Notes under the pieces: generated by a model
Databases searched by the model: none
The model's input: only the letters and a program-made list of their open reading frames with translations
What the model was told of the DNA's origin: nothing
Assembly: GCA_044226505.1 (NCBI GenBank)
Contig: JBGAGU010000002.1
Location: 686,559-750,558 of the forward strand
Direction: 5' to 3'
DNA from: Opitutaceae bacterium
GTDB lineage: Bacteria > Verrucomicrobiota > Verrucomicrobiia > Opitutales > Opitutaceae
Length of the DNA: 64,000 nt
Program-made: the position numbers and the translations under genes
In this document: piece after piece, positions 6,714 through 64,000 of the stretch
Position numbering within the stretch: the first letter of the stretch is position 1
Layout: each line of letters starts with the position of its first letter

Positions 6714-8762
<2,049 letters not shown>

Positions 8763-24460: not shown

Positions 24461-24496
24461 TTGCCCCTCCCGCCCGGCCCTCTTTCTTCGCCTCGC

Positions 24497-27354: not shown

Positions 27355-27379
27355 CGGCGTGTCTCACCCCCTTCCCCTC

Positions 27380-28762: not shown

Positions 28763-28828
28763 TCGCGCGGCCGCGCGACCGGGCAGCTCTGACCGTCCGG
28801 GTAGAAACCGCCCTCGCGGAAAATCGGC

Positions 28829-31582: not shown

Positions 31583-31618
31583 CCACTCCGCTTTCGTCCC
31601 GCCCAGCCCTTCCGCCCC

Positions 31619-33025: not shown

Positions 33026-33067
33026 TTCGCCCCCCGCCGCCGCGGGCGTCCCCGCCCGCGCCCCGCA

Positions 33068-34624: not shown

Positions 34625-34712
34625 AGCCGCCCAGCAGCGGCGGGCGTCCCCGCCCGCCGATCCAGGATCTCCGCCCAACCCCCGCGGGCCGGCACGCCCG
34701 CCGCCGCAAAGC

Positions 34713-36059: not shown

Positions 36060-36064
36060 CGATC

Positions 36065-49366: not shown

Positions 49367-49942
49367 TTAGGCCTTGCGCTTGGCAAACCACGCCAGACCC
49401 AAGAGGGCGAGGCCGAGGAAAGCCGCGGTCGAGCCACCGTCCGGAGCGGGAACGCCCGAGGAAGCGGAGAAGGTCGAGTTGACGTTCGTGCCGCTGCCGG
49501 CCGCGTTCTGGAAGGTCGACTCCCAAGTGCCCGCAGTATTGTCGAAACCAGCGCCACTGATGGTGCCGAAGGCGAAGAAGCCGATGCTGGTGGCAGAGTT
49601 CGACGTTTCGAAGATGCTGGTGACGTTGAAGGTGAAGCCACCGACGCTCCAAACAAGCGGACCAGGGCTGACAGTTACCACATTGCCAGCCTGATTGGTG
49701 AGCAGGCTCGTCGCCGTCGTGACCGCCGTGCCGGTGCTGATACCCGCGAAGCTGCCTGAACCCGGCCCAAGCGTCGTGGTCGAACCGAAGGTGAGAACAT
49801 TGTTCGAGGTCAAGAGATTGCCATTCGCGGCCGTATAAGTGCCGGCGAAATTAAGCTGGCCAGTGATCGGAACGGCGAAGGCCGCACCGGAAAGCCCAAG
49901 CGCGAAGCCGAGCGTGCTGATGGATTTGATGATGGATTTCAT
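49367..49942 (-). CDS. Small secreted protein with VPDSG-CTERM-type sorting signal
   Basis: ATG 49942 gives MKSIIKSISTLGFALGLSGAAFA (signal peptide). The C-terminus VPAPDGGSTAAFLGLALLGLAWFAKRKA is (V)PDGGS + TM helix + basic tail. Confidence 0.75.
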   Translation of the reverse strand: MKSIIKSISTLGFALGLSGAAFAVPITGQLNFAGTYTAANGNLLTSNNVLTFGSTTTLGPGSGSFAGISTGTAVTTATSLLTNQAGNVVTVSPGPLVWSVGGFTFNVTSIFETSNSATSIGFFAFGTISGAGFDNTAGTWESTFQNAAGSGTNVNSTFSASSGVPAPDGGSTAAFLGLALLGLAWFAKRKA

Positions 49943-49992
49943 GGAAACAAGTTGGGTTGTTCGTTGATGAAGTTGACCGACATCGACAGAAT

Positions 49993-50008
49993 AGCGAGGC
50001 GTGTGCCA
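49993..50008 (-). promoter_or_regulatory. Sigma-54 (-24/-12) promoter-like element upstream of the VPDSG-CTERM gene
   Basis: The minus strand reads cTTGGCAC-acgcc-TCGCTat, with GG-N10-GC spacing correct and one mismatch to TGGCAC-N5-TTGCW. It lies about 50 nt upstream of ATG 49942 in an AT-richer intergenic region. Confidence 0.45.
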
Positions 50009-50420
50009 AGTGAAAAAATCCATCAACACGAATCATAAATCACTATCCATCATATTTTAGAAATTCAGTAAATCAAAATGAGCCGACCTTGGCCATTCAC
50101 GATTTTGTAAGGTAAATCGACACTTCTGCCCAAGAACTTCGCATGCATGGCGCCTTGAGCATTGTGAGATATCCCAGAGTCCTCAGGTCCATGCACGAGA
50201 ATAGCGCATTCCGCCCGTCAAGATAGACGGCGAACTTCAATTCATCCAGTCCTTGGCGCTGAGGCGGCGTTTCCTGACTTGACCGAAAAGCAAGTTCATG
50301 GCGCATTCACCACCCCACGGATCAGGTGGGGTCGACGCGGCATCAGCGATGCATCACAAATCAAGAACCTGAGCCACTTCCCATCCGGAGCATACTCCCA
50401 CACCGAGCACACCAGTTCCC

Positions 50421-50436
50421 TGGCCCGCCACCTGCA
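50421..50436 (+). promoter_or_regulatory. Sigma-54 (-24/-12) promoter-like element upstream of the priming sugar transferase
   Basis: TGGCCC-gccac-CTGCA, with GG-N10-GC spacing correct and two mismatches to consensus. It lies about 33 nt upstream of the GTG at 50469. Confidence 0.35.
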
Positions 50437-50468
50437 GACAACCTCCTTGAATCACTCGGCTTTACCCA

Positions 50469-51245
50469 GTGCCCGCACTTAGCACCAGCCCCCTCGCAAA
50501 ACTGTCGTCCGCCGGCAGCGTCGCTCCACTTCCCGCGTGGAAGCGAGCCCTTGACTTGGCCTGCTGCTGTCTGGCCCTGCCGGCGCTGGCACTGGGCACA
50601 CTGCTCATCTCCGTGCTAATCGCCTTCGTTTCACCTGGACCCATTTTCTTCCGGCAGGAGCGCGTCGGTCTCAGGGGCCGGAGGTTTCGCCTTTTTAAGT
50701 TCCGCACCATGCATATGGGCGCAGCGACCTCTCAACATCAGGCGTATTTCGCGACGCTTATGGCCACAGGGGCGCCCATGCAGAAACTGGATGCAAAAGG
50801 AGATTCACGGCTTATCCCCGGTGGATGGTTGATTCGCGCCACCGGTCTCGATGAATTGCCCCAGATCATCAATGTCTTGCGCGGGGAGATGAGCGTGGTC
50901 GGCCCCCGCCCTTGTTTGGCCTACGAATACGAAAACTACACTTCGGCCCAGCGGCGACGCTTCCGATCTGTGCCAGGGCTGACCGGACTTTGGCAGGTTT
51001 CGGGCAAGAACCAAACCTCCTTCGGACGCATGATCCGACTGGACGTCTACTACTCGGCGAAAAAATCCCTCTGGCTCGACCTCAAGATTCTAGGCCTAAC
51101 CCTCCCCGCCATCGTTCGCCAAGTGGTCCAGATGATGGCTGCTCGCCGCAAATCCGATCGGCAACCCCTACCGGCTGAAGCTTTGTCTGATGCGCCGCCC
51201 ACGCGGTTGTCAGCGAGAAAGGGCCGGGTAACCACAACGCCTTGA
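50469..51245 (+). CDS. Polyprenyl-phosphate sugar phosphotransferase (bacterial sugar transferase, WbaP/ExoY C-terminal-domain type)
   Basis: SPGPIFFRQERVGLRGRRFRLFKFRTM, DELPQIINVLRGEMSVVGPRP and PGLTGLWQVSG. Confidence 0.9.
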   Translation: MPALSTSPLAKLSSAGSVAPLPAWKRALDLACCCLALPALALGTLLISVLIAFVSPGPIFFRQERVGLRGRRFRLFKFRTMHMGAATSQHQAYFATLMATGAPMQKLDAKGDSRLIPGGWLIRATGLDELPQIINVLRGEMSVVGPRPCLAYEYENYTSAQRRRFRSVPGLTGLWQVSGKNQTSFGRMIRLDVYYSAKKSLWLDLKILGLTLPAIVRQVVQMMAARRKSDRQPLPAEALSDAPPTRLSARKGRVTTTP

Positions 51246-51606
51246 CGAGGGTGGCAGGTGCCCGCGCAGCGCACTTCCCGTCAGCTACGAACCAACGGTA
51301 ACCAAATGCGCGCTTTGCGCATGATTTGCCCCTCTTTGCCGTTTCTACGCGTGGTTTTGCCCCTAACTCAGGCGAGGTTTCTGCGACCCGCGATCGCGTC
51401 CCCCCGGGGAGCCGCTGTAAAGGAACTTTGAGTCTCCGGCCGCTCTAAGCCAGCAACTCAGGGTGCGCGAGGGGCATCCGATAGCGATTGGTTCAGCGTC
51501 AACCCGCTCAAACATTAGCATTTTAGCACAAGTCGAGCATCCCCCCGGATCTGATCTCTCCGCTTCGGAATTCTTCCCGCGAAAATCAGGGTCCACCTTC
51601 TATTTT

Positions 51607-52707
51607 ATGCCGGCAAGAGCCCAATCGCCCCGCGAGTCGGCCCATGCCGTCGGAAAAAGCGCAGGCACGGTCAGCCCAGCCGATCCGACGGTAGCTCCCG
51701 ATTGGAATCGGACCATCGGCGCGCTGGGCGGGGCGACCTTTTTCCACACAAGCAACTGGGCAAACGTCCTTTCTCAGACCTATGGCTTTACCCCTGCCTA
51801 TCTCTGGCACATCAACGACGCTGGCGAGCGGTCAGTGATGCCAGCGATGGAGACATCGCAGTGGCTCTTTGGCCGACGCGGTGTTTCGCTACCCTTCACT
51901 GACGAATCCCCTGCTCTGCTGGCGGATGCAGCTGCGATTCGACCCTTGGTTGATGCGACCTTGCGCCAAGGTGCGAGCCGAGCGTGGACGAGCTGGGAAT
52001 TCCATGGCGACCGCCGGTCGCTCGGCATCGAGGACGCCCCTGCCTCGCTATCCTACTTCGGCCATGCGCTTGCCCTGAAAGGTAGCTCCGAGGAACTCTT
52101 CGCCAAGATTGACGGCACCGCGCGGACCGCAATCCGGAAGGCGATCAACCTTGGCGTGTCGGTCGAATTCTCGAACGAGCTCGCCGACCTCCGGGTTTTC
52201 TACGACCAGCTTTGCCGCACCCGCCGCAAACATGGCCTGCCACCGCAGCCATTTCGATTTTTCACCTCCATCCATCGTCACGCGCTTTCAGCCGGGCATG
52301 GCACCGTGGCAATCGCGCGGCGGGGTGGCATCCCCGTGGCCAGCGCCATCTTTTTCCATTTTGGTGCGAGCGCCATCTACAAATTTGCGGCCTCGGATCC
52401 GCTGGCCCGCGAGTCGCAAGCCAACCACCTCGTGCTGTGGCGAGCGATCGAACGCTACGCCAAGGACGGTTTTCATCGCCTCGATTTTGGACGCACATCG
52501 CGGAACAACGACGGCCTGAGGCGCTTCAAGCTGGCATGGCGTCCCACCGAATATGACCTCGACTACACCCGCTATGATTTCCGCCGCGAAGGCTTCGTTG
52601 CAGGCGGAAACGAGCGGACGACCGGATGGCACACCCGCGTCTTCCGACTGCTTCCTCCGTTCGTCTCACGACTGATTGGCGCCATCGCCTACAAGCACAT
52701 GGCCTGA
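51607..52707 (+). CDS. FemAB-like / GNAT (PF13480-type) protein of the kind associated with PEP-CTERM EPS loci
   Basis: ATG 51607 (MPARAQS). Shows FFHTSNWANVLSQTYGFTPAYLW, VSLPFTDESPALL, GTVAIARRGGIPVASAIFFHFGASAIYKFAASD and LDFGRTSRNNDGLRRFKLAW. The family was recognised by pattern only. Confidence 0.7.
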   Translation: MPARAQSPRESAHAVGKSAGTVSPADPTVAPDWNRTIGALGGATFFHTSNWANVLSQTYGFTPAYLWHINDAGERSVMPAMETSQWLFGRRGVSLPFTDESPALLADAAAIRPLVDATLRQGASRAWTSWEFHGDRRSLGIEDAPASLSYFGHALALKGSSEELFAKIDGTARTAIRKAINLGVSVEFSNELADLRVFYDQLCRTRRKHGLPPQPFRFFTSIHRHALSAGHGTVAIARRGGIPVASAIFFHFGASAIYKFAASDPLARESQANHLVLWRAIERYAKDGFHRLDFGRTSRNNDGLRRFKLAWRPTEYDLDYTRYDFRREGFVAGGNERTTGWHTRVFRLLPPFVSRLIGAIAYKHMA

Positions 52708-52784
52708 ACATTCTTCACGTTACACCCGCCTTCAGTTACCGATTTCACCAACCGAGCATGCTTCCCAGGGAAGCCTAAAGCACC

Positions 52785-55013
52785 ATGACAAACCAAACCA
52801 TCCCGGCGGCCCAGAATCTCAATCTCGGGGACATCTACTACATCCTTTTCCGCCATAAGTGGAAAATTCTCCTGTGCTCACTCGCCGGCATCGGCATCGG
52901 CGTCGCCCTCTACAAGACCGAGTCGCCGCCCTTTCAGTCGGAGGCGATGCTCCTCGTGCGCTACATCGTGACTCCCAACACGCCATCCGCTCCAAACCCG
53001 AATGGCCAGAACACCAATGGGGTGAAATCCGCCGACGAACGCGGCGCGACCATCATGAACACCGAGATGACGATCCTGAACAGCGCGGATCTCGCCAAGG
53101 TTGTGGCGGAAATCTACGGGCCCGAGAAAATCCTCGCCAAGACAGGCGGCGGCAAAGACCTGGGCGCAGCCACCGCAGCCGTCCACAACGGACTGCGTGT
53201 TGTGGTGCCGCAGTCCAGCACCGTGCTGCAACTCACCTTTCGTCACCCTGACCCCGACCTCGTCCAACCACTACTCCAAGTCATCATCGAGCAGTATCTC
53301 AAAAAGCATCTCGAGATCCACGGCGCCGGAGGCCTCCTGTCCGAGCAGCAACAGCAGGCTATGGATAGCACGCAACTCCGCCTCAACCAAGCCGAGGACG
53401 AGCTTCGCCGCGCTTTGACTGCTATTGGCGTCACCTCCATAGAAAACGCCAAGGAAGCGGTTGCCGGCCAGATGGCCAGCAATCGCCGCGAGGTCATGAG
53501 CTACGAGACGGAAGTCGCCGGGCGCATCGCCATCCTCGAGGAATTGAAGAAGCGTCTGGAGACTTCGAAGACTCCACCACCGGAGGCCCCCAAGGAGCCC
53601 GAGATCCCCCAGAAGATAATCGACGATCACAAGATCCTCACGATGCGTGTCGGCCGACTCCAGCAGCTTGAGCAGGAGTTGCTTGCGCAGTTCACGCCGG
53701 AAACCATCCGGGTGAAGCTTGCCCAAAGCCAACTCGCGGAAGCCGAAGTCGCGTTGAACAAGCTGCGAGAGCAATACCCTCAGCTCGTGAAGTCCATCCG
53801 GCAGGACCGCGTCATCGGTCCCGACATGGACGCCAGCGAGGCCTCCTCGATTGTGGTGCAAGTTGCGGCCTACAAGGCGAAAATCAAGGAACTCGATACC
53901 CAATATGAGCGGCTCCGTGCCGAAGCCGGGAAATACGAGCGGGCGGAGGCCAACATCCAGGATTTGAAGCGCAAGCGCGACGCAGCTTTCGCGGCCTACA
54001 CCACCGTCAACCAGATAACCGAAACAAACCGCTTCAACCGAGAGATCGGCGCCATCGGCAAGGTTGCAAACATCAACACCGTCCAGTCTCCCTCGCCCTC
54101 GTTCCGCGAGCCCATCAACGTCCGCCGGTCCGCTCTGTTCGCCGTCGCTGGCATTATCGCCGGTCTGGCCTGGGCTTTCCTCGTCGAGCTCTACCTCGAC
54201 CGCTCCGTGCGTCGGCCTCAGGATCTCACGCGCATGCTGCGCGCGCCGCTCTTTCTCACCATCCCGCGGCTGAAGCTAGACCCTCAGCCGCTGGCGCTCG
54301 AAGCGACCGCGAAACCCGCCGACGGGGCGGCATCAACCTCCACGGAGCTCGTCCCGGCCAAGCCGGCCAAGCGCCGCCGCCGCACCCATTCGCTCCAGCC
54401 CTTCCACGAAACCCTGCGCGATCGCCTCATCGGATATTTCGAGAGCCGCAATCTCACCCACAAGCCCAAGCTTGTTGCCGTCACCGGCCTCGGCCACGAG
54501 GCGGGCGTCACGACGACGGCTGCGGGGTTGGCCCGCAGCCTCTCGGAAACCGGCGAGGGCAACGTCCTCCTCGTCGACATGACGGTGGGCGAAGGCGCCG
54601 CCAAGCACTTCGTCAAGGGCCGCGAGGCGTGCGGCCTCGACGAACTCCTGGAGGCGCGCAGCCAGGGCCATGTGCAGGACAACCTCTACGTCGTCACCGA
54701 GAACAACAACAGCGAGCGTCTCTCGCGCAACATGCCGCAGCGCTTCGCGCGTTTGATTCCCAAGCTGAAAGCCAGCGACTTCGACTACATCATCTTCGAC
54801 ATGCCACCGGTCAGCCAGCTCAGCATTACCCCGCGCCTCGCGGGCTACATGGACATGGTGCTGCTGGTCGTGGAGTCTGAATCCACCGACCGCGACCTCG
54901 TCCAGGGCGCGTGCAACCTGCTTGCGGAGTCCAAGGCCCATGTCGGCGTGGTCCTCAACAAGACGCGCAACTACGTCCCGGGAAAGCTCAGCCCGGAACT
55001 GCTCGCCACTTGA
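52785..55013 (+). CDS. Polysaccharide co-polymerase (Wzz/GumC-type chain-length determinant) fused to a BY-kinase-like P-loop domain with a degenerate Walker A
   Basis: N-terminal Wzz region with a TM helix (WKILLCSLAGIGIGVALY), long coiled coils and a second TM helix (ALFAVAGIIAGLAWAFLV). The C-terminal domain has VAVTGLGHEAGVTTTAAGLA (no Lys), VLLVDM and DYIIFDMPP. Confidence 0.85.
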   Translation: MTNQTIPAAQNLNLGDIYYILFRHKWKILLCSLAGIGIGVALYKTESPPFQSEAMLLVRYIVTPNTPSAPNPNGQNTNGVKSADERGATIMNTEMTILNSADLAKVVAEIYGPEKILAKTGGGKDLGAATAAVHNGLRVVVPQSSTVLQLTFRHPDPDLVQPLLQVIIEQYLKKHLEIHGAGGLLSEQQQQAMDSTQLRLNQAEDELRRALTAIGVTSIENAKEAVAGQMASNRREVMSYETEVAGRIAILEELKKRLETSKTPPPEAPKEPEIPQKIIDDHKILTMRVGRLQQLEQELLAQFTPETIRVKLAQSQLAEAEVALNKLREQYPQLVKSIRQDRVIGPDMDASEASSIVVQVAAYKAKIKELDTQYERLRAEAGKYERAEANIQDLKRKRDAAFAAYTTVNQITETNRFNREIGAIGKVANINTVQSPSPSFREPINVRRSALFAVAGIIAGLAWAFLVELYLDRSVRRPQDLTRMLRAPLFLTIPRLKLDPQPLALEATAKPADGAASTSTELVPAKPAKRRRRTHSLQPFHETLRDRLIGYFESRNLTHKPKLVAVTGLGHEAGVTTTAAGLARSLSETGEGNVLLVDMTVGEGAAKHFVKGREACGLDELLEARSQGHVQDNLYVVTENNNSERLSRNMPQRFARLIPKLKASDFDYIIFDMPPVSQLSITPRLAGYMDMVLLVVESESTDRDLVQGACNLLAESKAHVGVVLNKTRNYVPGKLSPELLAT

Positions 55014-55056
55014 ACCCACCGCCCGATTTACCGCCGCCCGCGTTTGCCCGCTCTCG

Positions 55057-57240
55057 ATGCTGAAGAGCCACCAAAAGTTCTACTATGCGCTCAAGCCATT
55101 CCTTCCCTGGCGGCTGAGGATGGCGTTGCGGCGCGTCGCCGCCCGCCGCATCCAGCGCGCATCCAGCACAACCTGGCCAACCGATCCCGCTACGCGGCTT
55201 GCCCCTGACGGCTGGCCCGGCTGGCCCGAAGGGAAAAAATTCGCCGTTGTGCTCACGCACGACGTCGAGGGACCCGCGGGCTTGGAAAAATGCCGCCCGC
55301 TTTTTTCCCTCGAGCGCTCCCTTGGTTTCCGCAGCTCCTTCAACTTCATCCCCGAAGGCGACTATCGGGTGTCACCCGACCTTCGCGCGGAACTGGAGGC
55401 CGCGGGCTTTGAGGTGGGCGTCCATGATTTGCGGCACGATGGAAAGCTCTTCCAGTCCCACGCGCGCTTTCGGGAAAATGCGCGCCGAATCAACCAATAT
55501 GTCCGCGAATGGGGCGCCTCCGGCTATCGCTCCGGCTTCATGTTGCGCAACCTCGACTGGCTGCACGACCTCGACATCCGCTACGACTCCTCGACGTTCG
55601 ATACGGATCCCTTCGAGCTGCAGCCGGACGGGGCGGGCACCATCTTCCCGTTCTGGGTAACGCCGCCGCCCTCGGGCGCGGGCTCCATGTCGCCGTTTGC
55701 CACGAGTGAAAACGCCGCCGCGGCGCGCGGCGGTTACGTCGAGCTCCCCTACACCCTGCCTCAGGACTCAACGCTGTTCCTGGTCCTGCGCGAGAAGTCG
55801 CCCGAGACTTGGATTCGCAAGCTCGATTGGATCGTCGCGCAAGGCGGCATGGTGCTTATGAACGTGCATCCCGACTATGTCCGCTTCGACGGCGAGGCCG
55901 AGTCGTCGCGCACCTACCCGGTGGGGTTTTACGCGCAGGTGCTGGAACACATCCGCCGCAACTACGCCGGGCAGTATTGGCAGGCCCTGCCGCGCGAGGT
56001 CGCGCAGTTCACTGCGTCGATGGCCACCAGGCCCACGCGCCGGCGGGCACGGCGCGTCTGCATGGTCACCCATTCATTCTATGAGAGCGACAATCGCGTG
56101 ACCCGCTATGCCGAGGCGCTGGCCGCTCGCGGCGACCACGTCGACGTCGTCGCGCTGAGGCGTTCCGCCAGCCTCCCGGCACAGGAGGTCATCGAAGGCG
56201 TCAGCGTTGTGCGACTGCAGGATCGGTTCGGCAAGAACGAACAGTCAAAGCTCTCCTACCTCTGGCCGCTCGTGCGGTTCCTGTTCCGCTCCGCGAGTTG
56301 GATCACCTGCCAGAACCGCCAGCAACGCTACGACCTCGTGCACGTGCACAACATGCCGGATTTCCTCATCTTCGCGGCCTGGCACCCGCGGTTGACCGGG
56401 GCCAGGATCATCCTGGATATCCACGACATCGTGCCCGAGTTCTACGCCAGCAAGTTCAGCCGCGGGAAGTCCTCCATCACCATCTCCGCGCTCAAGCTCG
56501 TGGAACGCTGGTCGGCGCACTTTGCCCACCATGTGATCGTCTCGAACCACCTTTGGTTGGAAAAATTCCGCGCCCGCACGCACATGGAGGATCGCTGCTC
56601 GGTCTTCATCAACAACGTCGACTCCCGCATCTTTCAGCCCCAGCCGCGCACGCGGACCGACGACAAACTGATCGTCATCTTCCCCGGCGGACTCCAGTGG
56701 CACCAGGGCCTCGACATCGCGCTCGACGCCTTCGCCACCGTGAAGGCGCGGTTGCCGCAGGCTGAGTTCCACATCTACGGCGACGGCAACATGAAGCCCT
56801 CCCTGGTCGAGCAGGCCCAGCGGCTCGGCTTCAATGGCAGCGTCAAATTTTTCGAGCCCGTGGGCGTGCGCCAAGTCGCGCGCATCATGGCCGCCGCTGA
56901 TCTCGGCATCGTGCCCAAGCGCGCCGATTCCTTCGGCAACGAGGCCTACAGCACGAAGATCATGGAGTTCATGTCGGTCGGAATTCCGGTCGTCATTTCC
57001 CGCACCAAGATCGATCAATTTTATTTCAACGACTCGGTCGTGCGCTTCTTCGACTCGGGCAACGCCGCCGCGCTGGCCGAAGGCATGATCGAGGTCCTCG
57101 AAAATCCCGAGCGCCGGCGGCGCATGGTCGCCAACGCGCTCGCCTATTCCGACGAGCACAGCTGGAAGCGTCGCAAGACCGACTATCTGCGCATCGCCGA
57201 CGACCTCATCGCCGGCACGCCCCCCAAGCCCGCCACATGA
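55057..57240 (+). CDS. Fusion protein: polysaccharide deacetylase-like N-domain + GT4 glycosyltransferase C-domain
   Basis: ATG 55057 (MLKSHQKFYY). N-domain shows FAVVLTHDVEGPAG, FNFIPEG and VGVHDLRHDG. C-domain shows VCMVTHSFYESDNRVTRYAEALA, VHVHNMPDFL, FPGGLQWHQGLD and the GT4 E-x7-E motif GNEAYSTKIMEFMSVGIPVV. Confidence 0.8.
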   Translation: MLKSHQKFYYALKPFLPWRLRMALRRVAARRIQRASSTTWPTDPATRLAPDGWPGWPEGKKFAVVLTHDVEGPAGLEKCRPLFSLERSLGFRSSFNFIPEGDYRVSPDLRAELEAAGFEVGVHDLRHDGKLFQSHARFRENARRINQYVREWGASGYRSGFMLRNLDWLHDLDIRYDSSTFDTDPFELQPDGAGTIFPFWVTPPPSGAGSMSPFATSENAAAARGGYVELPYTLPQDSTLFLVLREKSPETWIRKLDWIVAQGGMVLMNVHPDYVRFDGEAESSRTYPVGFYAQVLEHIRRNYAGQYWQALPREVAQFTASMATRPTRRRARRVCMVTHSFYESDNRVTRYAEALAARGDHVDVVALRRSASLPAQEVIEGVSVVRLQDRFGKNEQSKLSYLWPLVRFLFRSASWITCQNRQQRYDLVHVHNMPDFLIFAAWHPRLTGARIILDIHDIVPEFYASKFSRGKSSITISALKLVERWSAHFAHHVIVSNHLWLEKFRARTHMEDRCSVFINNVDSRIFQPQPRTRTDDKLIVIFPGGLQWHQGLDIALDAFATVKARLPQAEFHIYGDGNMKPSLVEQAQRLGFNGSVKFFEPVGVRQVARIMAAADLGIVPKRADSFGNEAYSTKIMEFMSVGIPVVISRTKIDQFYFNDSVVRFFDSGNAAALAEGMIEVLENPERRRRMVANALAYSDEHSWKRRKTDYLRIADDLIAGTPPKPAT

Positions 57241-58436
57241 AAGCCCGCATCGAACAGAGCCTTCTCGGCGTGCAACGATGGGTCGAGGCCCGCGGCTACC
57301 GCGGCTACGATCCGGGCGACGGCCTCACCTCCTTCCTGCGCCCGCTCACGTTCGGGCACCTGTTCGCCGAGCGCCTGCTTCAGCAGGCGATCTGGAAATC
57401 CCCGATTAACATCCGCCCGCTCGTGGGCGTGAAGCCGCTCGATTCCACCAAGGGCCGTGGCTTCATGGCCTGGGGCCACGCCCTTCTGCACCAAGCCACT
57501 GGTGACGACAGTCACCGCGCGAAAGCGTTCGCGTGCCTCGACTGGCTGGACCACGCGCGCGAGGCCGGCTACGCGGGCCACTGCTGGGGCAACCACTTCG
57601 ACTTCTCCACGCGCAGCGGCTGCATGAAAGCCCATACGCCCACCATCGTGTGGTCGGGCCTCATCGGCCAGGCGTTTGTCGCCGCCTACGAGCGCTTCCG
57701 CGAGCCGCGCCACCTCGAGATCGCCGACAGCATCTGCCGGTGGATCCTCACGCTGCCGCGCGAGACCACGCCCACCGGGGCCTGCCTCAGCTACACCGGC
57801 GTCTTCCAAAACTCCGTCCACAACTCCAACCTCCTCGGCGCGGCGCTCCTCGCGAAGACCGGCCGCCTGACGGGCAACACCCGCTACCTCGAGGTCGCGC
57901 GCGACGCCGCCCGCTACAGTTGCGAGCGGCTCCGCCCCGACGGCTCGTGGTGGTATGGCGAGGACCCGAAATACCACTGGATCGATAACTTTCACACGGC
58001 CTACAACCTCGACAGCCTCCGCCGCTACATCGACGCCACGGGCGACCGCTCCTTCGACTCGCACCTCGCGCGCGGCTACGAGTATTTCAAGGCGACCTTT
58101 TTCGAACCTTCGGGCCGCCCGCGTTACTACCACGACCGCACCTATCCCGTGGACATCCAGTGCGCCTCGCAGGCCATCGACACCTTCGCCTTCTTCTCCG
58201 ATCGCGATCCGGCCGCGCTGTCTGTCGCGATGAAGGTCGCCGACTGGACCATCTCGAACATGCAGGACCGCACCGGCTACTTCTATTATCGCGAGTATCC
58301 GCTGATGAAGGCGCGCACGCCCTACTTTCACTGGGGCCAGGCGACGATGTTCAAGGCGCTCTCGCACCTGCTGGTGAAGCTCGGCCCCGCCGGGACCGCC
58401 GCCCGCGAGCCGGCTTTCGCCGCCACCGCCTCATGA
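57237..58436 (+). CDS. Hypothetical protein, probably an all-alpha (alpha/alpha-toroid-like) EPS-modifying enzyme
   Basis: 399-aa ORF translationally coupled to its neighbours (ATGA overlaps on both sides). Shows GHCWGNHFDFSTRSG, NSNLLGAALLA, DGSWWYGED and WIDNFHTAYNLDSL. The fold assignment is a guess. Confidence 0.55.
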   Translation: MKARIEQSLLGVQRWVEARGYRGYDPGDGLTSFLRPLTFGHLFAERLLQQAIWKSPINIRPLVGVKPLDSTKGRGFMAWGHALLHQATGDDSHRAKAFACLDWLDHAREAGYAGHCWGNHFDFSTRSGCMKAHTPTIVWSGLIGQAFVAAYERFREPRHLEIADSICRWILTLPRETTPTGACLSYTGVFQNSVHNSNLLGAALLAKTGRLTGNTRYLEVARDAARYSCERLRPDGSWWYGEDPKYHWIDNFHTAYNLDSLRRYIDATGDRSFDSHLARGYEYFKATFFEPSGRPRYYHDRTYPVDIQCASQAIDTFAFFSDRDPAALSVAMKVADWTISNMQDRTGYFYYREYPLMKARTPYFHWGQATMFKALSHLLVKLGPAGTAAREPAFAATAS

Positions 58437-59371
58437 GCGCCCGCCTGAAATACGTGCTCGTCACGCCCGCGCGCAACGAGGCCGCCTTCATCGAGGGCAC
58501 CATCAAATCCGTCGTCGCCCAGACCGCGCGCCCGGAAAAGTGGGTCATCGTCAGCGACGGCTCCAGCGACGGCACCGACGATATCGTGAAGCGCCACGCC
58601 GCCCAGCACCCGTGGATCGAGCTCCTGCGGATGCCGGAGCACCGCGACCGCACCTTTGCCGCCAAGGCCAACTGCTTCGCCGCCGGCTTTGCGCGCCTGG
58701 CCGGCACCGACTACGACCTCGTGGGCAACCTCGACGCCGACATCACGATGGGCCCCGACTACTACGAGTTCCTGCTCGCGCGCTTCGCGGAACGCCCGCG
58801 GCTCGGCGTCGCCGGCACGCCCTTTGTCGAGGACGAGTCGAAACCGCACGAGCACAGCTACGCGCACGGCTCGGCGAACCTCACGCACGTCTCCGGAGCG
58901 TGCCAGATTTTCCGCAAGCCGTGCTTCGCCGAGGTCGGGGGCTACGTCCCGATCAAGGGCGGCGCGATCGACTGGATTGCGGTCACGACCGCACGCATGA
59001 AGGGCTGGGAAACGCGCACCTTCCTCGAGCGCGTTTGCTTTCACCATCGGAAGATCGGCACGGGCAACCACAGCCCGCTCATGGCTCGATTCCACTACGG
59101 GCGAAAAGCCTACTACGTCGGCGGCCACCCGTTGTGGGAGACACTGCGCGGGCTGTTCCAATTCCGCGAGGCGCCATTCCTCATCGGCTCGGTCTGGTTC
59201 GTGGCCGGCTACTGGTGGGCGTGCCTCACGCGGATGCCGCGCCCGGTGTCCCGCGAGCTGATGGCGTTTCATCGCGGCGAACAGATGGCGCGGCTGCGCC
59301 AGCTCCTGCGGCTCGAAAAGAAACCCGCGCCTCCGACGACACCCGGGGCGATGTCCGGCACGCGAGCATGA
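58433..59371 (+). CDS. Glycosyltransferase family 2
   Basis: ATG 58433 (MSARLKYVLVTPARNEAAFIEGTIKSVVAQT), VIVSDGSSDGTDDIV and a DxD-like NLDADI. Confidence 0.85.
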   Translation: MSARLKYVLVTPARNEAAFIEGTIKSVVAQTARPEKWVIVSDGSSDGTDDIVKRHAAQHPWIELLRMPEHRDRTFAAKANCFAAGFARLAGTDYDLVGNLDADITMGPDYYEFLLARFAERPRLGVAGTPFVEDESKPHEHSYAHGSANLTHVSGACQIFRKPCFAEVGGYVPIKGGAIDWIAVTTARMKGWETRTFLERVCFHHRKIGTGNHSPLMARFHYGRKAYYVGGHPLWETLRGLFQFREAPFLIGSVWFVAGYWWACLTRMPRPVSRELMAFHRGEQMARLRQLLRLEKKPAPPTTPGAMSGTRA

Positions 59372-60309
59372 TCACCCCGGCACCCGGCACCACCAAGGAC
59401 GGCGCGCCGGATGCGATTCAACCGCATCTCAGCGTCTGTATCTGCACCTTCAAGCGTCCCGTGCTGCTGCGGCGGCTGCTCGAGGAGCTGGAGAAGCAGG
59501 AAACCGGCGGGGCGTTCAGCTATTCGATCGTCGTCGCGGACAACGACGCGACCCGATCCGCCGAAGCGCTCGTCGCAGAGTTTGCCGCGCGCTCGCCCGG
59601 TCGTGTCACCTACTGCTGCGAGCCCACGCAGAACATCGCCCTCGTGCGCAACCGCGCGATCGCGCACGCCCGCGGCGACTTTCTCGTCTTCATCGACGAC
59701 GACGAGTTTCCCGTGCCCGCGTGGCTCGCGGAGCTTTGGAAAACCTGCGAGTCGCACCGCGTCTCCGGCGTGCTCGGCCCCGTGCGGCCGCACTTCGATT
59801 CACCGCCGCCGGCGTGGCTCATCAGGGGCCGGTTTTGCGAGCGCCCCGAGTTTCCCACCGGGACGCCGCTCGCGTGGTCGCAGTGCCGCACGGGCAATGT
59901 GCTGTTCCGGCGTGCCATTCTGCCGGCGGATACCCCGCCGTTTCGCGAGCAGTTCGGCACCGGCGGCGAGGACGTCGATTTCTTCCAGCGCATGAGCGCC
60001 GCCGGCGCAAAGTTCATCTGGTGCAATGAGGCGGTCGCCTACGAGACCGTGCCGCCCTCGCGCTGGACGCGCAGCTACATGCTGCGGCGCGCCCTGCTCC
60101 GGGGTAAAAACAGCCTGAAGATTGGCCGGGGCCGTCTCCTGCTGATGGTGAAGTCCCTCGTGGCCGTGCCACTCTACGGCATCGTGCTGCCTTTTTCGCT
60201 GCTCGCCGGCCACCACCGCTTCATGCACCTCCTCATCCGGTGCTGCGATCACGTGGGCCGATTGCTGGCCGCCGTCGGGCTTCATCCGATGGAAGCGCGG
60301 CCGATGTAA
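59368..60309 (+). CDS. Glycosyltransferase family 2
   Basis: ATG 59368. Shows LSVCICTFKRPVLLRRLLEEL, IVVADNDATRSA, FIDDDEFP and GGEDVDFF, with a C-terminal TM segment. Confidence 0.85.
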   Translation: MITPAPGTTKDGAPDAIQPHLSVCICTFKRPVLLRRLLEELEKQETGGAFSYSIVVADNDATRSAEALVAEFAARSPGRVTYCCEPTQNIALVRNRAIAHARGDFLVFIDDDEFPVPAWLAELWKTCESHRVSGVLGPVRPHFDSPPPAWLIRGRFCERPEFPTGTPLAWSQCRTGNVLFRRAILPADTPPFREQFGTGGEDVDFFQRMSAAGAKFIWCNEAVAYETVPPSRWTRSYMLRRALLRGKNSLKIGRGRLLLMVKSLVAVPLYGIVLPFSLLAGHHRFMHLLIRCCDHVGRLLAAVGLHPMEARPM

Positions 60310-60348
60310 CTCCTTCAGCGCCCGCCCACTTTGCTCGCCTCCATCTCC

Positions 60349-61341
60349 ATGCCGAACGCCGATACCGCCCAACCCGAGGCATCGCCCCGAAGGACGGCCG
60401 CACCTGCACTTGAGTTCGAAGGGCGGCGCATCGTCTGTTCCGCCGGGCGGCTTCGGATCGCGTCCATCTTTGACGAGGTCTGGCTCGATCTCCCGCCACT
60501 CGCCAACCCCTTTGCGCTGCTCGACGCGGTCGAGCGCTCGGCGATCCAGGCCGATCTCTTTACCTTTGCCCAGTCGCTCCCCGAAGTCGCGGTGGCCTAT
60601 CCGGATCTTCACGTCGACCACGACAACCTCGCCGTCGGCGACACCTCGAACTTCAAGGCTTGGTGGGAAGGGCTGCCGCAGGAATCGCGGAAAAACTGCC
60701 GCAAAGCCCAAAAACGCGGCGTGACCGTGCGCCGCGCGGAGTTCGACGACGCGCTCGTCGCCGGCATCAAGGCGATCTACGACGAGACGCCGATTCGCCA
60801 AGGCCGGCGTTTTCCCCACTACGGCAAGGATCTCGCGACGGTGCGCGCCGAGAACGCGAGCTACGCGGAGCGCAGCCGGTTCATCGGCGCGTTTCTCGGG
60901 ACGCAGCTGATCGGCTTCATCAAGATGGTCTACTGCGGCCGAACCGCCCGCATCATGCAGATCATCGCGCGCAACGACCACTATGAGAAGCATCCCACGA
61001 ACGCGCTGCTGGCGGCCGCGATGGAGCAATGCTCAAAAGACTCCATCGATCGGCTGATCTACGGGCAGTATGTCTATGGCCGGAAGCGCAACAGCAGCGT
61101 GACGGAGTTCAAGCGCCGCAACGGTTTCATCGAGGTGCTCTTGCCGCGCTACTACATTCCCCTCACCGCCAAGGGTCGCCTTGCCCTGGCCACCGGGCTG
61201 CACCGTGGCCTGGCCGCCAACCTGCCCGAGCCTGTGACGAACTTCCTGCTGGACTCACGCGCCTTCGTTTACGACAAGTTCGGCCCGAAATTTTCGGGCG
61301 GGCGCGCCCCTTCATCCGCATCGCAGCGGGCCGCCTCATGA
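60349..61341 (+). CDS. Second FemAB-like / GNAT (PF13480-type) protein
   Basis: ORF 60331..61341 (TTG start); ATG 60349 preferred. Shows FKAWWEGLPQESRKNCRKAQKRGVTVR, IYDETPIRQGRRFPHYG, FIGAFLGTQLIGFIKMVYCGRTARIMQI and SVTEFKRRNGF. Confidence 0.65.
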   Translation: MPNADTAQPEASPRRTAAPALEFEGRRIVCSAGRLRIASIFDEVWLDLPPLANPFALLDAVERSAIQADLFTFAQSLPEVAVAYPDLHVDHDNLAVGDTSNFKAWWEGLPQESRKNCRKAQKRGVTVRRAEFDDALVAGIKAIYDETPIRQGRRFPHYGKDLATVRAENASYAERSRFIGAFLGTQLIGFIKMVYCGRTARIMQIIARNDHYEKHPTNALLAAAMEQCSKDSIDRLIYGQYVYGRKRNSSVTEFKRRNGFIEVLLPRYYIPLTAKGRLALATGLHRGLAANLPEPVTNFLLDSRAFVYDKFGPKFSGGRAPSSASQRAAS

Positions 61342-61350
61342 AATTCTTTC

Positions 61351-61425
61351 GCCGGTGTAGCTCAACGTTAGAGTGGCCGAATTGTATTCGGCAGATGGAG
61401 TGTTCGATTCCTCCCGCCGGCTCCA
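61351..61425 (+). tRNA. Non-canonical tRNA-Thr(UGU)-like gene (bulged T-stem, D-loop without GG), CCA encoded; possibly a specialised tRNA or a tRNA pseudogene
   Basis: Hand-folded sequence GCCGGTG-TA-GCTC-AACGTTA-GAGT-G-GCCGA-ATTGTAT-TCGGC-AGAT-GGAG(T)G-TTCGATT-CCTCC-CGCCGGC-T-CCA. The anticodon stem is a perfect 5 bp with U33 and A37. U8, A14, A21, the T54-A58 loop and C61 are canonical. An extra U is bulged in the T-stem, and the 7-nt D-loop lacks G18G19. It is followed by T6. Confidence 0.6.
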
Positions 61426-61476
61426 TTTTTTCCCCCACCGCTGCCGCCGCAGTGTGATGGCACGGCCGATGTCCCC

Positions 61477-63300
61477 ATGCCCGGCTTCGCAGGCATCCTC
61501 GGCTCCCGCACCCAGAATCCAGCTTCTCGCATCGAGGCCGGAGCGATGGCACAGGCATTGGCCGACGGAACCGAGGGACCCTCGGCCACCGGGAGCTTTT
61601 CCATCGATCGCGAGCAGGCGACGCTGACGTGGGTGCGACGGGTCACCGATCAGGAAAGCACCGCGTGGAATCGAACCCGGGACATCCTGCTCATATTCAA
61701 CGGCCGTGATTTCGACTTGCCGGAGAAGGCCAAGGCCCTCTGCGCCCGCGGCCGCTCCTGCACCACCGACGCCGAGGTTCTCGTGCACTGTTATGAGGAG
61801 GAAGGAGATTCCTTTGTCTCGCGTCTCAACGGTCGATTCACCGGCGTGATTGTCGACCAGCGCGCCGGCAAGGTCCTTTTGTTCAACGATCGTTTTGGCG
61901 CCGGGCGGGTGTATGTCCACGCCGCATCCGACGGGATCCGGTTTGCCACCGAAGCCAAGGCGCTCCTCGCCGCTTACCCGAGCCTGCGCCGCGTCGATCC
62001 CCGCGGACTGGGGGAGTTTTTCTCCGTAGGCTGCGTGCTGCAGGATCGCACGCTTTTTCCCGACATCGCTTTGTTGCCGGCCGGATCGCTCTGGACGCTC
62101 CATGCCGATGGGCGCGCCGAGCGCCGCCGGTATTTCTCACCCGAGGCATGGGAACAGCAAACCCCGCTCGAGCCGGAGGACTTCGGCACGCAGCTCACCG
62201 AGCTCTTCGCGCGCCTGGTGCCGCGTTACCATCGCGAGGCCGGGCAGGTCGCGATGTCGATGACCGGGGGCCTCGACAGTCGCATGATTCTTGCCTGGGC
62301 CAGGGCCCGGCCCGGCGAGTTGCCGTGCTACACCTTTGGCGGCCCCTACCGCGATTGCGCCGACGTTCAGCTGGCCCGCCGCCTCGCCAAACTCGCGGCG
62401 CAGCCGCACCATACCATACCGATTGGCCCGGACTTTTTCGCCCAGTTTGCTTCCCTCGCGGCGCGCACCGTGCAGTTGAGCGACGGAACGATGGATGTCT
62501 CCGGCGCGGTTGAACTCTACGCCAACCGCCTCGCCCGGCAAATTGCCCCGGTGCGCCTGACCGGCAACTACGGCTCGGAGATCCTGCGGGCCAATGTTGC
62601 CTTTCGGCCTCGCGCCCTCGACCGCGCGTTGTTCGCTCCGGAATTCCTCCCGCAGCTCGACGCGGCGGCGGAAACCTACCGCGCCGAGGCCGCGGGCCAC
62701 CGTCTGTCATTCATCGCGTTCAAGCAGGTGCCGTGGCACCACCACGCGCGCCTCTCGATCGAGGCCGCGGTGCTGGAGCCGCGCTCGCCGTTCCTCGACA
62801 ACGCGCTTGTGGCGCTGGCCTATCGCACGCCGCCGGCCCTGGCGCGCAGCCCCGTGCCCGCATTGCGCACGACTGCGGCCGGCAATCCCGCCTTCGCGTC
62901 CGTCCCCACCGATCGCGCCCTGCGGCTCGGTCGCTCGCCGGCGCTCGCACACCGCTGGCAGGAGTTCACCGCCAAAGCCGAATACGCGTGGGATTACGGC
63001 ATGCCCCCGTGGCTCGTGCGCGCCGATCGTCTGCTGCGCCCGCTGCGGCCGGAGCGGCTCTTTCTCGGCCGACACAAGTTCTATCATTTTCGCACCTGGT
63101 ATCGCGACCAACTCGGCCCCGAAATCGCCAGCCGGCCCTTTGGGCTTTCGCGCCTTCCCGCGTGCTACGCCGCCGGCGTCCCGCGAATGATTGCACGGGA
63201 CCACGCGGCCGGCCGGAAAAACTTCACGCTCGATCTGCACCGCCTGCTCACGCTGGACTGCCTTGATAAGTTCCTCGCCGAACCGCCATGCCGCAACTGA
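61477..63300 (+). CDS. Asparagine synthetase (AsnB)-family amidoligase lacking the N-terminal catalytic cysteine
   Basis: The N-terminus is MPGFAGILG, versus the canonical MCGIAG. Ntn-like domain (DAEVLVHCYEEEG, RLNGRFTGVIVD) and a synthetase-domain PP-loop (AMSMTGGLDSRMILAW). Confidence 0.85.
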   Translation: MPGFAGILGSRTQNPASRIEAGAMAQALADGTEGPSATGSFSIDREQATLTWVRRVTDQESTAWNRTRDILLIFNGRDFDLPEKAKALCARGRSCTTDAEVLVHCYEEEGDSFVSRLNGRFTGVIVDQRAGKVLLFNDRFGAGRVYVHAASDGIRFATEAKALLAAYPSLRRVDPRGLGEFFSVGCVLQDRTLFPDIALLPAGSLWTLHADGRAERRRYFSPEAWEQQTPLEPEDFGTQLTELFARLVPRYHREAGQVAMSMTGGLDSRMILAWARARPGELPCYTFGGPYRDCADVQLARRLAKLAAQPHHTIPIGPDFFAQFASLAARTVQLSDGTMDVSGAVELYANRLARQIAPVRLTGNYGSEILRANVAFRPRALDRALFAPEFLPQLDAAAETYRAEAAGHRLSFIAFKQVPWHHHARLSIEAAVLEPRSPFLDNALVALAYRTPPALARSPVPALRTTAAGNPAFASVPTDRALRLGRSPALAHRWQEFTAKAEYAWDYGMPPWLVRADRLLRPLRPERLFLGRHKFYHFRTWYRDQLGPEIASRPFGLSRLPACYAAGVPRMIARDHAAGRKNFTLDLHRLLTLDCLDKFLAEPPCRN

Positions 63301-64000
63301 TCCAATTCGGTTTCCTGCTGTTCGCCGCGTGGCTCATCCGGCGCGACATTGCGATGCGCCCTGGCCTTTCCCGGGCCATCTGGATTCCCACCATCTGGGT
63401 TTTCATCATAGCCTCGCGCCCGCTCTCCGCTTGGATCGGTTTCGGCGGCGCGACGGACACGCTCGACGGGAGCCCGATGGACCGGCTGTTCTACATGGTC
63501 ATGATCGCCGCCGCGCTGGTCGCGCTTTCCAAGCGCAACCTAAACTGGGGCTGGCTGATCGGCCGCAACTGGCCCGTCCTGCTCTTCTACGCCTTCCTCC
63601 TGTTTAGCGTCCTATGGGCCAACTCGCTTGAGTCGTCCTTCAAGCGCTGGGTCAAGGAAGCCGGCAACATCTTCATCGCCCTCGTGATCTTGTCGGAGGT
63701 CGATCCGCTTCAGGCCATCCGCGCGGTCTTCGTTCGCTGCGCGATCGTGCTCGTCCCCCTGTCCGAGATTTACATCCGGTATTTCCCGGACATCGGCCGC
63801 CGCTACAACATGCACTCCGGCGAAATGGAGGCGACGGGCGTCACCACGCAGAAAAACAATCTCGGCACCATGCTCATGGTCTGCGGCATCATCTTTGTCT
63901 GGGATTGGCTCGAGCGCACCCGCTCCACCGCCACTGGCCGCACGTGGATCGATCGGGCCGTCGCCGTCGGCATCGCCAGCCTCACGATCTATTTGTTTTT
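63288..64000 (+). CDS. O-antigen ligase / Wzy-like polysaccharide polymerase membrane protein (partial, continues beyond the window)
   Basis: Own translation from ATG 63288: MPQLIQFGFLLFAAWLIRRDI...IWIPTIWVFIIASRPLSAWIGF...VLLFYAFLLFSVLWANS...TGVTTQKNNLGTMLMVCGIIFVW. It has multiple hydrophobic helices, no stop before 64000, and overlaps the asnB-like stop by 13 nt. Confidence 0.65.
   Translation, partial: MPQLIQFGFLLFAAWLIRRDIAMRPGLSRAIWIPTIWVFIIASRPLSAWIGFGGATDTLDGSPMDRLFYMVMIAAALVALSKRNLNWGWLIGRNWPVLLFYAFLLFSVLWANSLESSFKRWVKEAGNIFIALVILSEVDPLQAIRAVFVRCAIVLVPLSEIYIRYFPDIGRRYNMHSGEMEATGVTTQKNNLGTMLMVCGIIFVWDWLERTRSTATGRTWIDRAVAVGIASLTIYLF

Follow-up and report, generated by a model that had tools for sequence, protein, structure and literature searches.

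Non-ribosomal, tRNA-dependent transfer of amino acids is used in peptidoglycan, membrane lipids, protein N-termini and some antibiotics. To our knowledge, tailor-made non-translational tRNAs are known essentially only from staphylococci, and we know of no report that their genes are linked to fem genes. The non-proteogenic tRNAGly of Staphylococcus aureus has altered D and T arms, binds EF-Tu poorly and feeds the Fem transferases (PMC4052509; PMC7826273), while FemX recognises its tRNA through the first two acceptor pairs and the CCA end (PMC2175331). The BD-12 enzyme Orf11, which is related to Sba18/Sbb17, glycylates an amino sugar at its amine, with Gly-tRNA as the donor (PMC12945691), and HfsK of Caulobacter is a tandem-GNAT, FemX-like and cyclic di-GMP-regulated protein that modifies the holdfast polysaccharide (PMC5362036). 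The Vibrio polysaccharide (VPS) of V. cholerae is made by a Wzx/Wzy pathway in which VpsJ epimerises a lipid-linked uronic acid and glycine is then added before further assembly by the ATP-dependent ANL/CapK-like ligase VpsH, with no mention of a tRNA or a Fem-like enzyme (PMC13463779). The stretch of DNA examined here, a 64-kb window of contig JBGAGU010000002.1 from an Opitutaceae bacterium (hereafter the window), contains a polysaccharide locus on the + strand from position 50469 to the window end. Within it, a tandem-GNAT protein gene (Fem-like 2, 60349-61341), a non-canonical tRNA gene of threonine identity (61351-61425) and a gene for a Cys-less AsnB-like ATP-dependent amide ligase (AsnB*, 61477-63300) follow one another, and comparative sequence analysis strongly supports a dedicated tRNA/Fem-like transferase pair in Wzy-type polysaccharide loci.

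Fem-like 2, to which protein P0001 is identical, has >1000 homologues, which form 354 clusters at 50% identity (E<=1e-30). Its association with the tRNA was examined from both sides. A genome scan with the Fem-like 2 profile alone gave 80 loci that span Verrucomicrobiota, Acidobacteriota, Alpha-, Beta- and Gammaproteobacteria, Nitrospirae, Chloroflexota and others, and in most of these ARAGORN finds a tRNA just downstream of Fem-like 2. A family covariance model (R1) was built from the Fem-like 2-linked tRNAs, sequences of at least 76 bits being counted as members; the window tRNA scores 99.9 bits. A member of this family stands beside Fem-like 2 in 56 of the 80 loci, nearly always a few hundred bases downstream and on the same strand, and three further loci carry a truncated, an opposite-strand or an Asn-type copy. 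Most housekeeping tRNAs of these loci have scores of 36-54 bits, the canonical tRNA-Gly(CCC) of locus L039 reaching 72.9. From the other side, a metagenome scan with only the 3' half of the tRNA (GGAGYGTTCRAWTCCTCCCGCCGGCTCCA) yielded at least 120 contigs. Among the matches listed, a Fem-like 2 homologue on the same strand ends <700 nucleotides (nt) upstream of the tRNA in 106 of the 111 contigs with at least 300 nt of upstream sequence. The five exceptions among these matches are two in which Fem-like 2 lies one gene further, a truncated copy of that arrangement, one with a Fem-like 1-type gene instead and one with an unrelated open reading frame (ORF) of 404 amino acids (aa). By these counts the tRNA/Fem-like 2 association appears close to exclusive in both directions. 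AsnB* is the third constant element: it is present in 68 of the 80 genome loci, directly after the pair in 57, and lies downstream of the tRNA in 70 of the 94 metagenome contigs with at least 600 nt of downstream sequence, again among the matches listed. An earlier note on this DNA had suggested looking for co-occurrence of tRNA, Fem-like and AsnB-like genes, and the triad is indeed conserved across phyla whichever way it is searched. The same note would have counted a tRNA placement unique to this strain and degenerate against its hypothesis; the opposite was found, with the placement recurring in 56 of 80 loci and multiple phyla.

The locus encodes a second tandem-GNAT protein at its head, Fem-like 1, which is kept in the related loci L204, L205 and L206. 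Because L207, a locus with Fem-like 1 only, was found to have no tRNA, the gene content indicates that the partner of the tRNA is Fem-like 2 and not Fem-like 1.

The tRNA gene is 75 nt long, has the anticodon UGU and an encoded CCA (ARAGORN; Rfam 49.7 bits), begins 9 nt past the Fem-like 2 stop and ends 51 nt before the AsnB* start. The description of it as an odd tRNA-Thr-like gene in the earlier note was apt. Its D loop, AACGUUA, has no GG, and G19 is lost in the window copy and in many others; its T stem sets GGAG[U]G against CCUCC, i.e., 6 nt against 5 nt with an extra base in the 5' strand (Rfam alignment); and its discriminator is U73. The canonical tRNA core, with G18G19 in the D loop and an unbroken 5-bp T stem, is absent from the operon tRNA, whereas the window's own tRNA-Pro and tRNA-Leu are canonical in D loop, T stem and discriminator. 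The 6-versus-5 T stem is present in nearly all members of the family. When 53 sequences were aligned to the cloverleaf including the bulged T stem, 98.7% of cells were paired, 13 of the 21 pairs showed compensatory change and 0 of 500 shuffles were as good, a pattern of covariation by which the family is a real structured RNA. Conservation is strongest in the acceptor and T arms, the acceptor stem being nearly invariant across phyla, and CCA is encoded in most copies.

The determinants of bacterial threonyl-tRNA synthetase (ThrRS) include G1-C72, C2-G71, G4-C69, G5-C68, G35 and U36 (Table 1 of PMC9976931). All four acceptor pairs are invariant in the 53 aligned tRNAs, in which 3:70 is the only acceptor pair that varies, and positions 35-36 are GU in 136 of 146 unique copies; the family thus carries this set of four acceptor pairs together with G35 and U36. 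The parts of a tRNA on which decoding depends are kept less strictly. GGU is a common bacterial threonine anticodon; among the 146 unique copies N34 is U in 52%, C in 38%, A in 10% and G in 0%, U33 is present in 82% and position 37 is a pyrimidine in 14%. Some copies have anticodon loops of 6 or 8 nt. U33 and A37 are both present in the window copy. The anticodon found at this site in close relatives is UGU, CGU or AGU, and the tRNAs of L005 and L006 are identical except at nt 34. The constraints that decoding places on the anticodon loop (U33, a purine at 37, a 7-nt loop and a stable anticodon in close relatives) therefore do not hold across the family, which displays the pattern expected if synthetase recognition were kept and decoding no longer required. 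Because ThrRS identity is kept while U33, N34, R37, the T stem and G19 are relaxed, the operon tRNA is probably a private amino-acid donor outside translation. A32 occurs in 65% of the copies.

Other identities occur in the family. Five Gly-type copies in the protein-selected set combine the anticodon UCC with a G-C pair at 3:70 and keep U73, and to judge from their sequences they carry the complete identity set of bacterial glycyl-tRNA synthetase (GlyRS) (PMC9976931). L098 contains, in the same locus as a Thr-type tRNA/Fem-like 2 pair, a second atypical tRNA with asparagine identity (GUU, G73) but with U37. A second FemAB-family ORF of that locus (L098:7159-8216, - strand, 330 aa, PF02388 44 bits) overlaps the start of this tRNA by 10 nt. 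The gene order in L076 is YdjC deacetylase, Fem-like 2, Asn-like tRNA and AsnB-like. In L014, a tRNA-like gene of 93 nt (5865-5957, + strand) stands 44 nt ahead of Fem-like 2. Its variable arm is long, it has G73, and its anticodon loop is irregular, ARAGORN reporting a 4-nt anticodon, gcaa; it may be another private donor, of the serine type. Two loci, L009 (6950-7287) and L024 (6961-7199), have two tandem copies of the Fem-like 2-linked tRNA, one base apart within each locus.

Fem-like 2 is a protein of 330 aa (ORF from 60331) in which no membrane domain was found. It matches PF13480 with only 23 bits, and its profile retrieves only generic single-domain GNATs among the sequences of the PDB, so that its link to the Fem enzymes comes from its fold. 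The AlphaFold (AF2) model, with a predicted local distance difference test score (pLDDT) of 87.4 and a predicted template modelling score (pTM) of 0.81, consists of two tandem GNAT-type domains, and its best PDB matches, Sbb17/Sba18, FemX, A-PGS/MprF and FemA (Foldseek, E 1e-8 to 3e-11, 255-375 columns), are without exception tandem-GNAT transferases that depend on aminoacyl-tRNA. From this model we infer that Fem-like 2 is an aminoacyl-tRNA-dependent transferase. F254-K255, in the motif TEFKRRNGF, is invariant in the Fem-like 2 family and aligns, with low probability, with an FK of Fem-like 1. In sequence, this pair recalls F304/K305 of FemX, which holds C75 and catalyses transfer (PMC9723616).

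Two further residues of Fem-like 2 appear to track the identity of the adjacent tRNA. Of 132 loci with a Thr-type tRNA, 131 have K at residue 115, as against R in 6 of the 8 whose tRNA has a Gly anticodon; at residue 119, Leu/Ile replaces Arg/Lys in 4 of the 5 Gly-type loci of the protein-selected set. Residues 115-119 of the window protein, numbered from 60349, are encoded at 60691-60705, and its residue 119 is Lys. The Gly-type loci are polyphyletic, being scattered over the neighbour-joining tree. The rule also predicted two later-fetched loci correctly: L205 has a Gly-type tRNA with R115 and I119 (QESRRNVRI), and L204 a Thr-type tRNA with K115 and R119 (QESRKNVRR). Most loci without a nearby tRNA, mainly from Acidobacteriota, also have R115.

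The third gene of the cassette encodes AsnB*, a protein of 607 aa with the domains PF13537 and PF00733. Gene callers start it at 61546; because the N-terminus is conserved, the sequence places the true start at 61477. Glutamine-hydrolysing AsnB enzymes use an N-terminal Cys as nucleophile. The N-terminus of AsnB*, MPGF, has no Cys2, as the term Cys-less in the earlier note implied, and the motif MPG(I/L)xGI occurs in 50 of 67 homologues. The PP-loop is kept: it reads TGGLDS at residue 263 of AsnB*, and TGG[LV]D[TSG] occurs in 115 of 131 homologues, the rest having close variants. Two NCBIfam models of related enzymes fail their cut-offs (TIGR01536, 114.8 bits vs 267.1; TIGR03108, 98.9 bits vs 816.9), and the closest solved relative is a hydroxyamidotransferase (7ylz). 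With the glutaminase nucleophile systematically absent, AsnB* would be unable to use glutamine. Since the Cys is lost and the PP-loop kept, its most likely reaction is adenylation of a carboxylate followed by amide formation, the amine being something other than ammonia from glutamine.

We propose that the cassette adds an amino acid to the repeat unit of the polysaccharide in the following way. The tRNA would be co-transcribed with the operon and excised by the normal tRNA-processing enzymes. Because it keeps the known bacterial ThrRS determinants, it could be charged by the ordinary ThrRS, and by analogy its bulged T stem and altered D loop with the lost G19 would probably keep it off EF-Tu and the ribosome. 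On the cytoplasmic side of the membrane, Fem-like 2 would then take the threonyl group off the tRNA and attach it to an amine in the repeat unit carried by undecaprenyl; the acceptor may be an amino sugar whose amine is free, be it de-N-acetylated or a 3-amino uronic acid. AsnB* would most likely make a second amide by adenylating a carboxylate, for which the VpsJ-like protein described below hints at a uronic acid, and the decorated unit would be flipped and then joined into the polymer by Wzy. Certain lineages have switched the cassette to glycine. The suggestion of the earlier note that an amino acid, plausibly threonine, is attached to the repeat unit before the action of Wzy finds support in the conservation of the triad, the ThrRS determinant set and the fold of Fem-like 2. 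We put the probability of the proposal as a whole, i.e., private tRNA, charging by ThrRS, transfer by Fem-like 2 to the lipid-linked repeat unit and a second amide by AsnB*, at roughly two in three.

Several observations weigh against this proposal. The structural matches of Fem-like 2 have TM scores of 0.5-0.63 and 13-16% identity, the protein falls below the threshold of the Pfam FemAB family (PF02388, 12.7 bits vs 24), and it aligns weakly with Fem-like 1 (E 0.011). The covariance model R1 scored the very sequences from which it was built. G34, which is also listed as a bacterial threonine determinant (Table 1 of PMC9976931), occurs in 0 of the 146 unique tRNA copies, and L157 and L194 combine a Gly anticodon with a Thr-type acceptor stem. 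A deacetylase-type gene, which could free a sugar amine, is found in only 39 of the 80 loci. About one quarter of the Fem-like 2 loci, mainly an acidobacterial group with R115, have no nearby tRNA. In L060, L063, L065, L069, L071, L078 and L082 (at about 6900-7000), mostly from Acidobacteriota, AsnB* abuts Fem-like 2 and leaves no room for one. Because such tRNA-less loci keep both Fem-like 2 and AsnB*, their gene content suggests that Fem-like 2 can work without a private tRNA; the enzymes concerned presumably use a housekeeping tRNA.

Of the other explanations, the one that survives best shares the tRNA and Fem-like 2 with our proposal and differs in the acceptor, which would be a small peptide, a lipid (as for MprF) or a protein that is secreted or sorted. 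The lipid aminoacylases MprF/A-PGS are among the structural neighbours of Fem-like 2, and a gene for a VPDSG-CTERM sorted protein adjoins the locus. We consider such an acceptor unlikely, as the constant neighbours of the pair are glycosyltransferases, Wzy, Wzz and the VpsJ-like protein, with sugar deacetylases in about half of the loci, while Fem-like 2 is without a membrane domain and the VPDSG-CTERM neighbour is not conserved.

A second explanation has AsnB* act on the tRNA-bound species. The tRNA would be a covalent carrier, and AsnB* would either load it with an adenylated acid or acylate the amine of Thr-tRNA with the activated carboxylate of a uronic acid; Fem-like 2 would deliver the product, so that threonine would bridge two sugars in what would amount to tRNA-templated glycan chemistry, with AsnB* representing a new class of AsnB enzymes that act on tRNA. 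AsnB* is the second most constant neighbour and stands directly after the tRNA, it has lost the glutaminase nucleophile and kept the adenylating PP-loop, and the acceptor stem is nearly invariant beyond the known needs of ThrRS, all of which would fit. We nevertheless regard this as quite unlikely, both as an account of AsnB* and as a carrier mechanism, given that the complete ThrRS and GlyRS sets argue for charging by the standard synthetases and that AsnB* stays beside Fem-like 2 in loci without a tRNA. We also know of no AsnB-family enzyme that acts on tRNA.

It is very unlikely, in our view, that the tRNA-shaped element is never aminoacylated and works in cis, cuts by RNase P and RNase Z serving to separate or stabilise the Fem-like 2 and AsnB* messages. 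Its position would suit that role, as it begins 9 nt behind the Fem-like 2 stop and ends 51 nt ahead of the AsnB* start, and a scan of the gene string detected neither a promoter nor a terminator between Fem-like 2, the tRNA and AsnB*; so would the strong conservation of the acceptor and T arms, the parts that RNase P recognises. A processing signal would leave unexplained why the anticodon stem is kept by compensatory change and G35-U36 conserved, why CCA is encoded in most copies and why Fem-like 2 residues track tRNA identity. The switch to glycine alters the anticodon and 3:70 together, which is sensible only for recognition by a synthetase.

Highly improbable is a specialised translational tRNA that, like bldA, supplies or gates a rare threonine codon for the locus. 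Co-transcription with possible target genes would be in keeping with it, and UGU reads ACA, which is rare in a GC-rich genome; yet ACA makes up only 13 of the 236 threonine codons of the locus and does not occur at all in the genes for Fem-like 2, AsnB* and Wzy, the anticodon can be UGU, CGU or AGU and also switches to glycine or asparagine, and a pyrimidine at 37, a base other than U at 33 and loops of 6 or 8 nt are incompatible with efficient decoding. The codon counts and the anticodon variation led us to reject a rare-codon decoder.

Least probable of all is a housekeeping tRNA-Thr of the ordinary kind that has no tie to the operon around it and is, for example, a genomic landmark or island integration site: although ARAGORN and Rfam call a tRNA of normal length with an encoded CCA, and tRNA genes often border islands, this one is enclosed by a conserved operon, its neighbours on either side being conserved across phyla, its family occurs almost only beside Fem-like 2 among the matches listed, the presence of UGU, CGU and AGU at the same site in close relatives shows that it is not the sole decoder of one codon, and the operon tRNA has a T-stem bulge and no G19, with U33 and R37 varying across the family.

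Around the cassette, the ORF list and family searches show one co-directional string of genes on the + strand from 50469 on, and the ten components that the earlier note had listed were found in the order and on the strand given there. The first gene (50469-51245) encodes a priming polyprenyl-phosphate sugar-phosphate transferase of the small Bac_transf type (PF02397 181.7 bits; TIGR03025 223 bits, below cut-off). Fem-like 1 follows at 51607-52707 (longest ORF from 51463) and is a tandem-GNAT protein of the FemAB/CelD-BcsL type that has 65.6 bits with PF13480 and passes PF02388 with 38.7 bits; all its homologues carry both domains. It matches TIGR03019 with 105.6 bits, below the cut-off of 260.35, and Fem-like 2 has no match to this model. 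The idea that Fem-like 1 and Fem-like 2 are close paralogues was rejected on the E value of their alignment, 0.011. The next gene (52785-55013) encodes a Wzz chain-length determinant fused to a degenerate domain like that of the bacterial tyrosine (BY) kinases (PF02706 31.9 bits; TIGR01007 and TIGR03018 sub-threshold). Because the Walker A motif, GLGHEAGVT (54400-54500), has lost its Lys to Val and the C-terminal Tyr cluster is absent from the sequence of this protein, the kinase-like domain is probably a pseudo-kinase. A glycosyltransferase of family 4 (GT4) with an N-terminal extension of ~340 aa is encoded at 55057-57240 (ORF from 54922; start as in L001). The earlier note had read it as a deacetylase-GT4 fusion. 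The GT4 part holds, with PF00534 and PF13579 on the C-terminal half; the deacetylase part is less firm, the N-terminal half, a possible deacetylase-like domain, having only a sub-threshold match to PF01522 (E 0.14). Then come the gene for the VpsJ-like protein (57237-58436) and two genes for glycosyltransferases of family 2 (58433-59371, PF00535 59.6 bits; 59368-60309, PF00535 72.7 bits), and after the cassette the gene for a Wzy_C-type polymerase (63288-64000), which is cut by the window end; its full-length copy in L001 (12940-14325) has 461 aa and 49.7 bits with PF04932. The overlaps claimed at 57237, 58433, 59368 and 63288 agree with the ORF coordinates, being of 4 bases at the first three and of 13 bases at the last.

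The locus was followed for 8 kb past the window on contigs L001-L003 of the same organism, where genes for a DXD sugar transferase, a NodB-type deacetylase, an acyltransferase-3 and an MBOAT protein precede a TonB-receptor gene. The idea that Wza, Wzx and exosortase genes may lie beyond 64000 was not borne out, as none of them was seen in these 8 kb (L001/L002). Nor could the locus be called exosortase-linked on more than a divergent VPDSG-CTERM protein encoded at 49367-50029, which is the sole hint of a sorting system and is not conserved in related loci. Control by sigma-54 likewise failed to find a footing: the sole enhancer-binding protein (34713-36059) is ~14 kb away, with a sulfatase, an oxidoreductase and other unrelated genes between it and the locus. 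No -24/-12-like site (TGG-N8-TTGC) was found in 50030-50468, upstream of 50469, and across the whole window matches to it occur at chance level.

The window also contains, at 19925-37567 and unrelated to the locus, a pectinesterase/GH28/glucuronyl-esterase cluster and a DUF1592-family protein with a DUF1552 partner; a sulfatase also lies in this region, and a HisKA kinase with a sigma-54 response regulator is encoded at 33068-36059. In L204 (17098-20993) and L205 (17087-20996), 3' of the conserved locus, there are genes for an MBOAT protein, a protein of ~350-370 aa, a PP-binding carrier of 87-90 aa and a further product, with a 46-aa ORF among them in L204 only; this set looks like a Dlt-type esterification module. 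At that place the window organism has an MBOAT gene followed by a TonB-receptor gene instead (L002).

The nature of the sugar is hinted at by several genes. The VpsJ-like protein, which the earlier note had listed as an unknown all-alpha enzyme, is all-alpha indeed but need no longer be called unknown. It has 399 aa and no Pfam or NCBIfam match; homologues with 69-77% identity (P0278, P0359, P0378) are named VpsJ by the Joint Genome Institute (JGI). Its AF2 model (pLDDT 87, pTM 0.89) is an (alpha/alpha)6 barrel whose top Foldseek matches are cellobiose 2-epimerases and members of the AGE (GlcNAc 2-epimerase) family, including 5zhb, 7d5g and 3wkf; a cytoplasmic AGE-like barrel thus stands inside a Wzy-type locus. 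VpsJ of V. cholerae has the same AGE/cellobiose 2-epimerase-like barrel and is the proposed C5-epimerase of lipid-linked N-acetylmannosaminuronic acid (ManNAcA) (PMC13463779). By the JGI names and the modelled fold, the VpsJ-like protein is a putative epimerase whose substrate would be a lipid-linked uronic acid. L204 (1-401), L205 (1-1238) and L207 (7101-9938) carry, immediately upstream of Fem-like 1, WbpB-, WbpD- and WbpE-like genes for a GFO_IDH_MocA oxidoreductase, a hexapeptide (Hexapep) acetyltransferase and a DegT aminotransferase, and P0484 is a Fem-like 1-Hexapep fusion. Genes of the Wbp pathway point to a 2,3-diamino uronic acid, and their presence hints at this sugar in the related loci; they are absent at the locus in the window organism and in L206. 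Deacetylase-type genes, where present, include a YdjC gene directly upstream of Fem-like 2 in about 8 loci. On account of the VpsJ-like, Wbp-like and deacetylase genes, the acceptor may most plausibly be a sugar amine and the substrate of AsnB* a uronic acid, both being tentative assignments.

If our proposal is correct, a family of 354 clusters, from soil and freshwater Verrucomicrobiota, Acidobacteriota, Proteobacteria and other phyla, would extend the principle of the private tRNA to exopolysaccharides. It would offer a natural model for the question of how a tRNA comes to be set apart from the ribosome, together with natural switches of tRNA identity, from threonine to glycine to asparagine, with co-varying enzyme residues. 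It would also provide a genetic marker predicting amino-acid-decorated polysaccharides and candidate tRNA/enzyme pairs for engineering. For annotation, some of the genes called tRNA-Thr in these phyla are probably not translational.

The earlier note knew of no described polysaccharide locus with Fem-like transferases, an AsnB-like ligase and a tRNA together. For the tRNA this agrees with the open-access literature searched, in which we found no account of polysaccharide loci that couple a tRNA gene to a Fem-like gene. The pairing of Fem-like and AsnB-like proteins is not new: TIGR03019 (FemAB family XrtA/PEP-CTERM-associated) and TIGR03108 (XrtA/PEP-CTERM system amidotransferase) are curated families of such proteins in exosortase exopolysaccharide loci, and they are the best or near-best NCBIfam matches of Fem-like 1 and AsnB*, respectively, albeit far below cut-offs; no tRNA was found in the definitions of these families. 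HfsK differs from Fem-like 2 in that no tRNA is mentioned for it (PMC5362036) and none is encoded with its gene. The locus resembles that of VPS in having a VpsJ-like protein and a candidate ATP-dependent amide ligase, and differs from it in that the candidate belongs to the AsnB family and is accompanied by a tRNA-dependent branch. The chemistry of Orf11 is the one proposed here for Fem-like 2, whereas Sba18/Sbb17 and FemX of Weissella viridescens use housekeeping tRNAs and soluble antibiotic or UDP-MurNAc-peptide substrates. The closest parallel is the tRNAGly of Staphylococcus with FmhB, FemA and FemB, where, as proposed here, extra tRNAs with altered D and T arms have a GNAT-fold Fem partner and serve a cell-envelope polymer. 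The staphylococcal tRNAs are charged by the normal synthetase and kept out of translation, with G18G19 replaced and a T stem whose EF-Tu pairs are weak; according to the published description they are restricted to staphylococci, have glycine identity and serve peptidoglycan (PMC7826273; PMC4052509). Unlike them, the operon tRNA stands directly after its transferase gene, occurs in Gram-negative environmental phyla and belongs to a Wzy-dependent polysaccharide locus, and its family has mostly threonine identity, with switches to glycine and asparagine, and a bulge in the T stem in place of weak pairs.

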